In this document: in pieces, positions 25 to 2,223 of the stretch
Numbering within the stretch: the stretch's first letter is position 1
How the letters are laid out: each line of letters opens with the position of its first letter
IMG/VR virus record: IMGVR_UViG_3300002542_000292
Reading direction: 5' to 3' (one strand)
DNA from: a virus
Taxonomy: Duplodnaviria; Heunggongvirae; Uroviricota; Caudoviricetes
Length of the DNA: 64,000 nucleotides
Made by a program: the position numbers and the translations under genes
The notes under the pieces: generated by a model
Seen by the model: only the letters and a program-made list of their open reading frames with translations
What the model was told of the DNA's origin: nothing
Databases searched by the model: none

Positions 25-454
25 GCGCTATTTCAGACGGCACGATCAGCTTATGCGAGGGGACGCCGACTTGTTTGTTGGTGTCCCTTTTTGTCAGGGT
101 GTTACGCCACCGTCACCAGAGGATATTATCCAATCATCACTTCATTTTCGTACAAGAATATTCATGCCCATATTGCAACACATCAGTGCCATCTGCTTCA
201 ATATAATTTCGGATTTTTCAAAACGGTATGTACGAACCCCATCACACCAACATGATGTGTTCCTCAATAAATGATTTCATTTCATTGTTTACACTTCCAC
301 ACCTAAATAGCTATTTAAATACTAGAAAATACATTTTCAATATCACAAACAAATGACTTCAAGGATGTATGAGACAGAGAAAACGGTTACAGAAAATGGA
401 TTTGATCCACACTGCGCCATATAGTGTAAAATGAACGGAATCCACACAAGTTAT

Positions 455-2075
455 GCTACAATGGTTGTTGCATCGTTGGTAACGAAATAAAAATGATGTA
501 CATATGCTGATACAGTATTACTTTCCAATTCGTTCCCAACGGAACACAATATAGTAAGCATACTGTACAACAGTTGTTGTGGTAATATTTATGATTCGTC
601 GTAAGTTGCACAAAGACAATATATTCTCAATACAGTTGGATGACCAATTGTGGTAATTGTTCGCATATTTTCTCTGTTTAACTGTCATAAAAACAGAAGA
701 TGTGTTTAACGAAGTATATGTTACCACAATAGTTGTGGTAATATTGTTGCATCGGTAAAAAAAGATTTTGTGTAATATTCAAATATGCCCAAATATGTCG
801 ATTTTTCTATAAAAGGTATGTCCCCCAAAAATATATGTAAAAAACGCGTGGGATATATTTTATTTTTTAAATATATATATTATATATATTTTTATATTTT
901 TTACATTTTTCTTCTTGTTAAACAAAGATATTACCACAAATATTGTGGTAATGTCGTAGATATCCAATATCTCAGACATTTCGTTTCCACCTACATTGTC
1001 GAAATATAGGGGAATTACCACAATTGTTGTGGTAATATTGTAGATATCCAACATTTCGGAAAACACACTTTTGACGATGCAACCAAAATATATATAGATT
1101 ACCACAATTAATGTTGCATCGTCGGGAATGAAACATAAAAGATGTTCATTCAAAGCCGGACATCACTTCTATTTCGTTTATAACGGTGCAACAACTGCGC
1201 GAACGTACAACCAATTATGTGTCTTAGTCCACTGTAGGTGAAATCAAGCTTATTTGAAGTATGATTGTTGTGCACATTGATTACCGCCATTTCTGCATGT
1301 CTCCCAACGATGCAACAATCACATTGGGATTTCAGATGCGTATACTCAAATATGCTAGAAAGTGTTTACAAGTGACTTACATATAAATCTGGTTCCGTTA
1401 TGGAGGGAACAGAAATATCCACGATAGGTTTTGTGTTCATTTTGTACCGCTGTTAGTTAAATTGGAATCATCGACACAGTGTATGCATATGTCTTTCTGT
1501 TTTGATAACGATGAGAACAAAACCGTTGTAGATATCCACATAAACACTTTAAATTGATAAAAATGTGAATTTGAATTAATCGGGAAGGAATCAAAGAACA
1601 TCAATAGCGCATATGTTTAATTTCCGGTGAAACTACAAATGTTTTCAATCCAATAATTGTTATTAAGATACCCTTCAAATCAGCTTATTTTCGTATCCAT
1701 CGATGCAACAAGCATATGTATATTTTATTGCACTCGTTGGAAATGAACTTTGGAAAATGCTGTATATGGGGTAGACATTTCAATATGCTTAAATTCCATT
1801 TCCGATGTACCAAAACGATTATTTGCATATGTTGCTGCAACCCATATGCAGATGAGGATATATTTCTTCAATTCGTTATTGATTAACTAAAAATAATGTC
1901 AAAGTATAATTGAAGATACGTATCTTACCAACATTACAAATCAGTTTCATCTAATTCCCAACGATGTGTTGCAGCATTTTCTGCATACCCTGTCTAACCT
2001 ATCGATCCGATATATGTAACAGCGTGCTTTTGTCAACAGAACTAATTGGGAACGATGCAACAAATGCTGTTGCAT
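455..2075. repeat. Second dispersed repeat family CC(C/G)AACGATGCAACAA, at least 7 copies in both orientations (462-477, 741-752, 1110-1124, 1296-1313, 1696-1712, 1947-1966, 2045-2074)
   Basis: Motif GATGCAACA or its reverse complement TGTTGCATC recurs with conserved CCCAAC flank; the 2051-2074 copy is an inverted pair, GATGCAACAAATGCTGTTGCAT. Confidence 0.75.
570..1110. repeat. Family of palindromic repeats ATTACCACAA-NN-TTGTGGTAAT: full copies at 721-742, 930-952 and 1014-1037, half-sites near 575-590, 645-660 and 1098-1110. The copies at 930-975 and 1014-1058 are each followed by GTAGATATCCAA
   Basis: Read directly: TTACCACAATAGTTGTGGTAA, TTACCACAAATATTGTGGTAA, TTACCACAATTGTTGTGGTAA. AT-rich region with no convincing ORFs. 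Confidence 0.8.
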
Positions 2076-2223
2076 AGTCTGCGACAACACACGTTGTGCT
2101 GTGTGCCAAATGTGTGCCAAATTTGAATAATGACGGTGTGACATACTGTGTGCGTCATTGTACTATCTGCAGACCGACATGCACAAAAAGAAAGGACCTG
2201 CGGCAGCAGGTCCTCCAACACAA

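Follow-up and report, generated by a model that had tools for sequence, protein, structure and literature searches.

A candidate replication origin with palindromic sites beside a SaPI/Cch-type helicase gene in a large uncultured mobile element

An AT-rich block at approximately 390-2190 of the 64-kb window (the whole stretch of DNA analysed) and the gene adjacent to it probably constitute a Rep-plus-origin module of the SaPI/Cch type in a large uncultured mobile element. It is likely that this module is much larger than the known examples and differs from them in possessing 23-bp palindromes and a second, mirrored family of sites. In the sequence-only reading, the block was proposed to be an origin or an array of iterons next to a replicative helicase, and this proposal is supported by the protein fold, the presence of a melting core and the layout found in eight lineages. 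The term “iteron array” applies only in part, as the repeated sites are clustered, but most of them are 23-bp palindromes and not classical direct iterons.

The AT-rich noncoding block

The GC content of the block is 34%, compared with about 46% in the window. The block contains no ORF longer than 97 aa and no credible gene, and no genes were called in the equivalent block of one relative, which agrees with its original description as AT-rich and noncoding. The Rfam search with gathering thresholds revealed only tRNAs in the window, and a permissive Rfam scan of positions 1-2300 yielded only chance-level microRNA matches, none with E < 0.05. The blastn search against phages found a tRNA as the sole match, and the search against plasmids found none. 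An IS element or a known terminal repeat was thus rejected as the identity of the block, since no such similarity was found and no second set of motif copies is present elsewhere in the window. The minimum of the cumulative GC skew within the window lies near 13 kb, away from the block, 64 kb being too short for this value to be informative. The local GC skew flips sign at the block in two related loci (L003 and L008) and shows no flip in three others (L004, L012 and L013).

Palindromic sites of family A and site C

All three motif families (A, B and C) reported in the block from the sequence are present there at a concentration far above chance, and a search of the 64 kb found them to be essentially confined to it. 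The half-site of family A, TTACCACAA, has 10 exact matches in 64 kb, nine of which are located in 577-1107, with 0.65 expected and a maximum of three in 100 shuffles. The lone match outside the block sits inside a gene. The complete site is a 23-bp palindrome with 10-nt arms and a 3-nt spacer, ATTACCACAA-NNN-TTGTGGTAAT; the palindrome noticed earlier is therefore real, but its spacer is 3 nt and not 2 nt.

A full palindrome, gTTACCACAA-tag-TTGTGGTAAT, is located left of the core at 720-742 and is conserved in L004, a relative with 87% protein identity. Two further palindromes belong to direct repeats on the plus strand, which had been described as about 45 nt long and carrying an additional motif, and which proved to be 47-nt composite units with 85% identity. 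The first copy (930-976), conserved in L004, includes the palindrome 930-952 and site C, GTAGATATCCA, at 956-966; the second (1014-1060), located 84 nt from the first, includes the palindrome 1014-1036 and site C at 1040-1050. A hybrid of A and B half-sites, ATTACCACAA-TTAA-TGTTGCATCG, follows at 1098-1121, 84-85 nt from the preceding palindrome, and the same hybrid is found in L004 at 3851-3874. The motif scan also revealed two half-sites TTGTGGTAAT on the minus strand, at 577-586 and 648-657. Exact copies of site C occur in the window only at 956, 1040 and 1528, the third being a plus-strand copy at 1528-1538.

Sites of family B

The search for the family B motif CGATGCAACA with no more than one mismatch gave 15 matches in the window, with 6.2 expected. 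Nine matches, six of them exact, are located in 466-2077 and, as had been claimed for this motif, occur in both orientations. One stray exact match outside the block lies within a gene. The B units are 10-35 nt long. The distal B-type palindrome ATGCTACAA-TGG-TTGTTGCAT (453-476) holds a minus-strand B site at 466-475; it belongs to an extended B unit of 46 nt (458-503). The minus-strand site CGATGCAACA at 744-755 abuts the A palindrome 720-742 and is conserved in L004 at 4221. The plus strand carries the variants CGATGCAACC at 1075-1084 and CGGTGCAACA at 1184-1193, the latter with a TTTCGTT element upstream, and the sites CCAACGATGCAACAAT at 1304-1319 and CCATCGATGCAACAAG at 1697-1712. A degenerate plus-strand unit, TCCCAACGATGTGTTGCAG, was recognised at 1957-1975 by repeat comparison, and the motif scan placed a gene-proximal B/B palindrome, GGGAACGATGCAACAA-ATGC-TGTTGCATAG, at 2046-2078.

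The B sites are on the minus strand left of the core (466 and 745) and on the plus strand right of it (1076, 1185, 1309, 1702, 1961 and 2054), with two exceptions on the right side, at 1112 and 2068. On each side they face outward from the core, and the same pattern is observed in L004; this orientation test is inapplicable to the symmetric A palindromes. Both A and B half-sites end in ACAA and form hybrid palindromes kept in L004. This relatedness suggests that A and B make up one recognition system rather than two.

The AT-rich core and the spacing of the sites

The conserved core occupies 804-912, includes ACGCGTGGG at 844-852 and contains an AT-rich candidate unwinding element at about 830-912. 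The GC content of the 80-mer 854-933 is 7.5%, the second-lowest value being 20%. No other 100-mer in the 64 kb forms as unstable a duplex as 852-951 (-99 kcal/mol; mean -137, sd 8.1; next -110). The core is nearly identical in L004, and the AT-richest 60-mer is central to the array in the window, L004, L003 and L008. In the window, clustered sites flank the core on both sides. The distance between the core-flanking palindromes is 210 bp in the window, 213 bp in L004 and 211 bp in L008. With a helical repeat of 10.5 bp, the 11 inter-palindrome distances available from five lineages deviate from an integral number of turns by 0.108 turn on average (Monte Carlo P = 4e-4), and of the seven periods tried between 10.0 and 11.0 bp this one gave the best fit.

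The rep-like gene and its product

The rep-like gene (2224-4539, minus strand) encodes a protein of 771 aa, predicted by fold comparison to be an MCM-like self-loading initiator helicase. The block begins 8 nt past the stop codon of this gene with an intrinsic terminator (2191-2216, minus strand; an 11-bp stem with six GC pairs, then a T run), which separates the gene from the block. The protein contains the Walker A motif AGPRSSGKS and the Walker B motif AIFDEY. The AF2 model built from 24 sequences (pLDDT 86.8) comprises an N-terminal helical domain (residues 1-113), a beta domain (127-300), a P-loop ATPase domain (308-480), a helical domain (489-620) and a winged-helix-like domain (663-745). 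An earlier model from eight sequences was poor (pLDDT 61) and already pointed to Cch and Rep.

The Foldseek search against the PDB placed Cch (5dgk) at rank 1, with E 6.7e-13, a target TM-score of 0.54-0.55 and about 655 aligned columns. It was followed by SaPIbov1 Rep (8tch, E 4.4e-10), SaPI5 PriRep, PriRep1 and then MCM2-7; weak matches to T-antigen helicase domains had E-values of 0.01-0.05. Judging by the predicted model, two structure-comparison programs identify the protein as an initiator helicase of the Cch/SaPI-Rep type.

The Pfam search assigned the protein to no family at E <= 0.01, including DUF927 (PF06048), whose model it fails. There was likewise no match to PHROGs or to Rep_3, and the PDB profile searches returned P-loop matches only. 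The profile search of 1.84 billion representatives found 394 relatives, with HMM E-values down to about 1e-17. Among 20 relatives sampled from these, 14 possess DnaG-type, AEP/Prim-Pol or Toprim-like (DUF3854) N-terminal domains, and four intermediates (P0027, P0032, P0038 and P0039) contain PF06048. The hhalign comparison with ten primase-helicases gave 100% probability and E ~1e-41 (1.1e-41) over 533 columns, covering residues 125-744. By profile comparison, the 771-aa protein matches the helicase module of primase-helicase fusions. The gene had been described as P-loop primase/helicase-like; it is real, has both Walker motifs and is a helicase by its fold, but no primase domain was detected in the protein.

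Residues 1-120 and 741-771 are the fastest-evolving parts of the protein, and the divergence of the C-terminal winged-helix domain is no greater than that of the rest. Directly upstream of the gene, a small ORF encodes a basic helical protein of 98 aa (4547-4843, minus strand), which may be a partner of Rep; every relative has an equivalent of 59-90 aa in the corresponding position. Neither Pfam nor PHROG gave a match for the upstream neighbours (98, 121, 156, 341 and 223 aa).

Comparison with related loci

The gene was found in eight protein lineages with 30-98% identity, and in all of them it adjoins a repeat block of 0.7-2.4 kb. The block is located downstream of the gene in seven lineages (the window, L004, L007, L001, L003, L012 and L013) and upstream in L008. 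The repeat sequence is different in each of the eight lineages, and at each locus the lineage-specific 8-mers are nearly confined to the block. L004 carries TTACCACAA-N4-TTGTGGTGA around the AT core, and L007 (77% protein identity) carries TATTGTGGTAAC. L001, L002 and L014 (56%) share ATGGTGACAA-CTA-TTGTCACCAT, the L001 site being written GGTGACAA. The sites of L003 (53%; GTTACCCCAT-ATAT-GGGGTAAC, written TTACCCCA) and of L008 (51%; ATGTGTACAA-TAA-TTGTACACAT, upstream of the gene) are also arranged around an AT core. L012 (33%) has repeats of CAGTACACAGG. L013 (30%) has three mirrored repeat sets in tandem, two of them around cores of 19-25% GC, and its third core was placed from the repeat positions. 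Multiple site sets are exemplified by the three sets of L013 and by families A and B of the window.

The window and L004 are collinear only over 723-1066 (81% identity), with a flanking protein 87% identical. In all four full palindromes of L004, the right half-site has changed in concert from TAAT to TGAT. The gene-proximal kilobase (1150-2100) is poorly conserved.

The relatives sit on contigs of about 240 kb. The contigs of several relatives end in the block, which could also mean physical ends of DNA. The search of IMG/VR with the protein and two DNA patterns found no relatives, nor did the search of GTDB genomes, and tblastn against phages and plasmids gave no match. JGI metagenomes provided one extra locus.

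Alternative explanations

It is unlikely that the block is a composite maintenance locus, in which one site family serves as the origin and another as a partition centromere or an incompatibility and copy-control array bound by a different protein. Phased palindrome arrays resemble plasmid centromeres, two or three distinct site families share one block, three separate sets of mirrored repeats follow one another in L013, and a conserved small basic ORF lies upstream of rep. The window also encodes an actin-like ALP/ParM protein (61201-62253), but this gene is 59 kb away with no A, B or C motifs nearby, and the arrays track the rep-like gene across the lineages and not a partition gene. The relatedness of A and B half-sites and the conservation of their hybrid palindromes in L004 likewise speak against two separate systems. 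A centromere belonging to the ALP/ParM gene itself was rejected, since neither a repeat array nor any A, B or C motif lies near 61201-62253. No operon of a partition NTPase and an adaptor beside a repeat array was found, ALP/ParM being the only partition-like gene seen.

Quite improbable is a transcriptional control region, where the sites would be operators of a dimeric repressor or activator acting on early or divergent promoters, including autoregulation of rep. Palindromes of 23 bp are typical operators of dimeric regulators, and the L008 array does lie upstream of the operon of the small ORF and rep. However, the block is downstream of rep in the seven other lineages, it is behind the intrinsic terminator in the window, and no gene to be regulated was found within 2 kb of it. 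The number of sigma-70-like promoters, 12, equals the 12.0 expected from shuffled sequences, and a promoter cluster was rejected on the same count. The master-regulator operator array considered in the sequence-only reading is also at odds with the distribution of the motifs, which do not recur at other genes in 64 kb as regulatory sites would; the stray A match and the stray exact B match are both in genes. The extreme AT-rich core with mirrored flanking sites would be left unexplained.

It is very improbable that the block represents a genome terminus or packaging site (pac, cos or a terminal repeat) of a large phage. Three contigs, each from a different assembly (L001, L002 and L014), terminate at points no more than 18 nt apart, the L006 contig ends in the AT core, and those of L007 and L011 also end in the block. 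However, the window and L004, L005, L003, L008, L012 and L013 read through it. The three coincident ends directly follow the second copy of an exact 27-nt repeat, which is where an assembly break caused by a repeat would fall. Neither terminase nor structural genes were identified in the window, and blastn against phages and plasmids revealed no similarity to IS elements or to terminal repeats already described. An array of genes for small non-coding RNAs or structured transcripts, which the 2 kb without ORFs and the repeated 35-47-nt units as possible RNA modules might suggest, is hardly credible, because there is no Rfam match with E < 0.05, the units occur in both orientations mirrored about the AT core, and the window and L004 conserve only short DNA motifs and the core and not extended transcripts.

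Comparison with known replication systems

The Rep-plus-origin modules of SaPIs are the systems that most resemble the one proposed here. SaPI origins lie directly downstream of rep and contain 6-12 iterons in opposite directions, split by a central AT-rich region; Rep binds the iterons and is self-loading (PMC9371898; PMC7581432). The Cch protein, which contains DUF927, is a relative of SaPIbov1 Rep (PMC7581432). In the loci analysed here, the cis element also adjoins the rep ORF, being downstream in seven of the eight lineages, sites lie to either side of a central AT-rich region, the family B sites are oppositely oriented on the two sides, and the site sequence is lineage-specific. According to the structural model, the initiator shares an MCM-like N-domain, a P-loop ATPase and a C-terminal winged helix with the SaPI proteins.

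The differences from SaPIs are also considerable. Helically phased 23-bp palindromes make up the main sites, in place of the 5-6-nt direct iterons of SaPIs, and there are two or three site families. The window protein is about 250 aa longer than SaPI Rep and has an extra fast-evolving N-terminal helical domain, and as a whole it gives no Pfam match. The specificity of SaPI Rep comes from its C-terminal winged-helix domain, and the same domain here is not extra-divergent. A primase partner was not found among the window protein and its upstream neighbours with Pfam and PHROG. The host element exceeds 64 kb and carries tRNAs, gyrase and ribonucleotide reductase, whereas a SaPI is a 15-kb island. 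SaPI origins measure a few hundred bp, compared with the blocks of 0.7-2.4 kb described here.

The SCCmec Cch protein (PDB 5dgk), an MCM-like helicase with DUF927, has a sequence identity of only 12-13% with the window protein, which, unlike Cch, fails the Pfam DUF927 model. The DUF927-type primase-helicase fusions of phages and mobile elements (Kazlauskas et al. 2016, PMC4889955) are homologous to it over residues 125-744, but most of them carry a DnaG or AEP primase domain that is missing in the window protein.

The SV40 large T antigen and papillomavirus E1 provide no more than an analogy: they too combine initiator and helicase, their palindromic sites lie on either side of an AT-rich or readily melting element, and they load as a double hexamer; their origin-binding domain, however, is not homologous. 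Both belong to eukaryotic viruses, whose origins span about 60-100 bp. Iteron-plasmid origins (Rep_3/pi/TrfA) are similar in that the initiator sites adjoin an AT-rich unwinding element and the initiator gene. In contrast, their initiator is a winged-helix dimer or monomer recruiting DnaB and not a helicase as here, and their sites are tandem 17-22-bp direct repeats, not palindromes. DnaA boxes (GATCCACAC-like at 404 and 439, and ATATCCACA at 1532) were rejected for want of clear enrichment: the scan for TTATCCACA with one mismatch placed two of 14 window matches in the block and gave no clear enrichment in the block of any relative.

Possible mechanism of initiation

If the block 390-2190 is the vegetative replication origin, the 771-aa protein would be its cognate initiator and replicative helicase. 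Oligomers of Rep would recognise the 23-bp A palindromes, TTACCACAA-N3-TTGTGGTAA, and probably also the related B half-sites GATGCAACA, so that Rep would be bound on the same helix face on both sides of the core. The AT-rich element 830-912 would then be melted by Rep, and two hexamers could load themselves in opposite directions, leading to bidirectional replication. The site specificity may be set by the fast-evolving N-terminal helical domain (1-120), by the C-terminal winged-helix domain or by both. Site C, GTAGATATCCA, and the B units farther out (1150-2100) may serve as targets of accessory or regulatory factors.

A further-reaching version of this scheme, which we regard as speculative and rather unlikely, is a large modular origin in elements of about 240 kb. 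One MCM-like self-loading helicase would operate there on two or three independent mirrored site sets, each with its own melting core, representing either stacked alternative origins or specificities or the fusion of an origin with arrays for copy control or partition, and the palindromes would be read by the N-terminal domain and not by the C-terminal winged helix. If true, origin recognition would be organised in a new way in this helicase family, and the loading of double hexamers at phased palindromes would have a bacterial analogue.

The Rep-plus-origin module of the SaPI/Cch type, which remains the preferred reading, would extend self-loading helicases known from staphylococcal islands of 15-60 kb to elements of about 240 kb. 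The candidate origin and initiator make the replication of very large uncultured elements experimentally approachable, in a family without a match in the phage, plasmid, IMG/VR and GTDB collections searched. The eight site sequences with graded protein divergence, including the concerted single-base change, constitute natural specificity variants suited to working out how these helicases read origins. The conserved separation of about 210 bp between the palindromes on either side of the melting core offers a testable geometry for models of double-hexamer loading.

Since a Replic_Relax gene and plasmid-like functions are also encoded in the window, a second cis-acting site may exist elsewhere.

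Repeated sites in the block adjoining the rep-like gene

The GC content of the first 2000 nt of the window is 34%, against about 46% window-wide, and no ORF longer than 97 aa was found in the block between about 390 and 2190. The block contains two main families of recurring sites. The half-site of family A, TTACCACAA, occurs ten times in 64 kb, with nine of the matches within 577-1107; the expectation is 0.65 in 64 kb, and the maximum among 100 shuffles was three. Family A sites comprise three full palindromes, ATTACCACAA-N3-TTGTGGTAAT (720-742, 930-952 and 1014-1036), and two lone half-sites (577-586 and 648-657). 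Family B, CGATGCAACA, has 15 matches in the window with at most one mismatch; nine of them, six exact, lie within 466-2077, and the B units reach about 20 nt further upstream (…TTTCGTT-N-CCAACGATGCAACAA). A third site, C (GTAGATATCCA), is present in exact copies at 956, 1040 and 1528 only, the first two inside 47-nt direct repeats spaced 84 nt apart. The half-sites of A and B are related, because both terminate in ACAA, and they join into a hybrid A/B palindrome (1098-1121) and B/B palindromes (453-476 and 2055-2075).

The sequence-only reading had claimed a block devoid of credible ORFs, a clustered palindrome, an array of CGATGCAACA and direct repeats of about 45 nt holding a third motif. 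That description was correct, save for the palindrome spacer, which is 3 nt and had been noted as 2, and the primase label given to the neighbouring gene.

A perfect tandem of two TGTGTGCCAAA units is located at 2100-2122, with the gene-proximal B/B palindrome on one side and the terminator of rep on the other. At the block edge, GGATTTGATCCACACT (397-412) is identical at 14 of 16 positions to GGTTTCGATCCACACT in contig L001, which encodes a relative of the rep-like protein (12438-12453); apart from this match, the two lineages share no DNA similarity. The common 16-mer might serve as a site for a host factor; it looks like a DnaA box, though such boxes show no enrichment.

AT-rich core and site geometry

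Among the 100-mers of the window, the one at 852-951 has the lowest duplex stability by a wide margin (-99 kcal/mol; mean -137, sd 8.1, runner-up -110), and the 80-mer at 854-933 has a GC content of 7.5%, the next-lowest being 20%. The A palindromes are centred at 731 to the left of this core and at 941 and 1025 to its right, followed by the hybrid at about 1110, with successive spacings of 210, 84 and about 85 bp. Family B is mirrored about the core, with minus-strand sites on the left (466, 745) and plus-strand sites on the right (1076, 1185, 1309, 1702, 1961, 2054); the strand exceptions, 1112 and 2068, are each half of a palindrome. With a helical period of 10.5 bp, eleven inter-palindrome distances from five lineages deviate from whole turns by 0.108 turn on average (Monte Carlo P = 4e-4); seven periods between 10.0 and 11.0 bp were compared, and 10.5 bp gave the best fit. 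The core-flanking palindromes are spaced 210 bp in the window, 213 bp in L004 (the nearest tabulated relative) and 211 bp in L008, another relative.

The rep-like protein

The ORF at 2224-4539 (minus strand) is followed by an intrinsic terminator at 2216-2191. Its 771-aa product contains the Walker A motif AGPRSSGKS and the Walker B motif AIFDEY. Pfam and PHROG searches gave no match. Homologues form only seven clusters among 5.8 billion proteins, and their profile retrieved 394 more distant relatives from 1.84 billion representatives. Among 20 of these sampled, 14 have N-terminal DnaG-type, AEP/Prim-Pol or Toprim-like (DUF3854) domains and four contain PF06048 (DUF927). Profile-profile comparison with ten sampled relatives gave 100% probability (E 1.1e-41, 533 columns, residues 125-744).

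The AF2 model (24 sequences, pLDDT 86.8) comprises a helical N-domain (residues 1-113), a beta domain (127-300), a P-loop ATPase (308-480), a helical domain (489-620) and a C-terminal winged-helix-like helix-helix-hairpin unit (663-745). In a Foldseek search against the PDB, the top rank was taken by the SCCmec Cch helicase (5dgk, E 6.7e-13, target TM 0.54-0.55), followed by the SaPIbov1 Rep initiator-helicase (8tch, E 4.4e-10), SaPI5 PriRep and PriRep1, and then MCM2-7 subunits. This ranking places the modelled protein as a distant member of the MCM-like self-loading initiator helicases of the Cch/SaPI-Rep group. The protein has an additional N-terminal domain and no detected primase domain; the earlier label of a primase/helicase-like neighbour stands as to the helicase part, by fold, and finds no support as to the primase. 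Residues 1-120 and 741-771 diverge fastest, with 18-30% identity versus 50-70% elsewhere in relatives of 51-56% identity; divergence of the C-terminal winged-helix unit is merely average.

A small basic helical ORF of 59-98 aa always lies directly upstream of the rep-like gene (4547-4843, minus strand, in the window; counterparts in L001, L003, L004, L007, L008, L012 and L013). Its conservation is weak (…S-x-R-T-M…KKGN), and searches gave no family match; it may encode an accessory DNA-binding or loading factor.

Repeat blocks of the relatives

In all eight lineages of the rep-like protein, a repeat-rich non-coding block adjoins the gene. The repeat sequence is different in each, and lineage-specific 8-mers are nearly restricted to the block in every locus. 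L004 (87% protein identity) has four copies of TTACCACAA-N4-TTGTGGTGA surrounding an AT core, as well as CGATGCAACA and GGATATC sites. L007 (77%) contains TATTGTGGTAAC half-sites and ATACCACAA-TTG-TTGTGGTGAT, and L001, L002 and L014 (56%) contain ATGGTGACAA-CTA-TTGTCACCAT. AT cores are surrounded by GTTACCCCAT-ATAT-GGGGTAAC in L003 (53%, core at 12866) and by ATGTGTACAA-TAA-TTGTACACAT in L008 (51%, core at 9216), where the block is upstream of the gene. L012 (33%) carries CAGTACACAGG repeats on either side of a gap. The 2.4-kb block of L013 (30%; 6218-8674), also adjoining the rep-like gene, holds three tandem repeat sets, GGGACATAT, CCGCCACAA facing TTGTGGCGG, and GTGTATATT facing AATATACAC, all mirrored and each of a different family. 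The first two surround cores of 19-25% GC; the repeat positions suggest a core for the third.

Only 723-1066 of the window can be aligned with L004 (81%), though the flanking protein is 87% identical. The AT core and the neighbouring ACGCGTGGG are nearly identical in both, and the right half-site TAAT of the window has become TGAT in L004, a concerted change in all four full palindromes.

Probable replication origin and alternative readings

The SaPI origin is located directly downstream of the rep ORF and has 6-12 iterons and an AT-rich centre, with at least two iterons per side and opposite orientations on the two sides. Rep reads the iterons with the winged helix at its C-terminus, needs no ATP to melt the origin and is self-loading, probably in the form of two hexamers (PMC9371898; PMC7581432). 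DUF927 is present in Cch, which is akin to SaPIbov1 Rep (PMC7581432), and primase-fused DUF927 helicases have been proposed as phage replicative helicases (PMC4889955). The conserved package found here has four parts, namely an initiator-helicase gene, an adjoining repeat block, mirrored lineage-specific helically phased sites and a central extreme AT core, and therefore gene and block are probably a SaPI/Cch-type module of Rep plus origin. What is established is the fold of the protein, the layout of the locus, the clustering of the sites and their covariation with lineage, and the thermodynamic minimum. The 771-aa protein would bind sites in the block and melt 830-912, and two hexamers of it would be loaded. 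The earlier proposal of a replication origin is supported by the helicase fold, the least stable duplex and a layout kept across eight lineages. The kind of system is already known, and the version in the window differs in several ways: the block is roughly ten times larger than known origins, the sites are palindromes in helical phase and belong to multiple families, the initiator is divergent and unannotated, and the module is carried by giant elements.

A composite locus, combining an origin with a centromere or copy control, would fit the several site families of the block and the three repeat sets of L013. It is unlikely, however, as the ALP/ParM gene is 59 kb distant and lacks the block motifs, and the occurrence of A/B hybrid palindromes points to one recognition system. 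Still less probable is an operator array, against which stand the position of the block behind a terminator, the lack of genes within 2 kb, promoter-like sites at chance level and the near-absence of the block motifs elsewhere in the window.

Contigs of six relatives, namely L001, L002, L014, L006, L007 and L011, stop inside the block, and three independent assemblies of one lineage (L001 at 12772, L002 at 12754, L014 at 6746) stop within 18 nt of one another, as a terminus or packaging site would have it. Yet seven sequences run straight through the block, and the coincident ends directly follow the second copy of an exact 27-nt repeat, AAATGGTGACAACTATTGTCACCATAT, as assembly breaks would give; the terminus reading is improbable. 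The L006 contig stops in the AT core. The contig ends are likely assembly breaks caused by repeats or AT-related coverage loss, the alternative being physical DNA ends. A cluster of non-coding RNAs receives no support from Rfam and is highly improbable.

Gene content of the element

The window encodes gyrase A and B, both ribonucleotide reductase subunits, thymidylate synthase, an FtsH-like protease, a PhoH/PIN protein, two DnaJ-domain proteins, an ankyrin-repeat protein and at least 14 tRNA genes. The fourteen to fifteen tRNA genes lie on the plus strand at 5129-16363, densely clustered at 15445-16363; tRNA-Tyr (5129-5215) overlaps a doubtful 121-aa ORF (4880-5245, minus strand). The GC content of the ribonucleotide-reductase region (28001-32000) is 34-37%, about 10 points lower than in the window as a whole, suggesting that the region was acquired separately. 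The best PHROG match of an adenylosuccinate synthetase homologue (20983-22248, plus strand) is PurZ-type (phrog_1211, 6e-62; Pfam Adenylsucc_synt, 2e-45), a hint that the DNA of the element might contain 2-aminoadenine in place of adenine.

Plasmid-like genes encode a VirD4/TraG-like coupling protein (53738-55729), a prepilin-peptidase-like protein (55790-56440), a Replic_Relax protein (56928-57914) and an actin-like ALP/ParM protein (61201-62253). The 64-kb window showed no phage structural gene, and the element may be either a jumbo phage or a giant plasmid. Searches of phage, plasmid, IMG/VR and GTDB collections did not recover the 771-aa protein; relatives are located on contigs of 239 and 243 kb that come from metagenomes of soil and rhizosphere.

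The intergenic region beside the Replic_Relax gene (56460-56927) contains three tandem copies of ACTGCCTCAA (56540-56570) and an inverted repeat (56517-56552), and may be a second cis-acting site, e.g., a transfer origin or centromere. Past its block, L004 (7951-13009) has genes for a VWA-domain protein, a prepilin peptidase, a pilin-like protein and a PilB/GspE-type ATPase, which together make up a type IV pilus or type II secretion-like set carried on the element.
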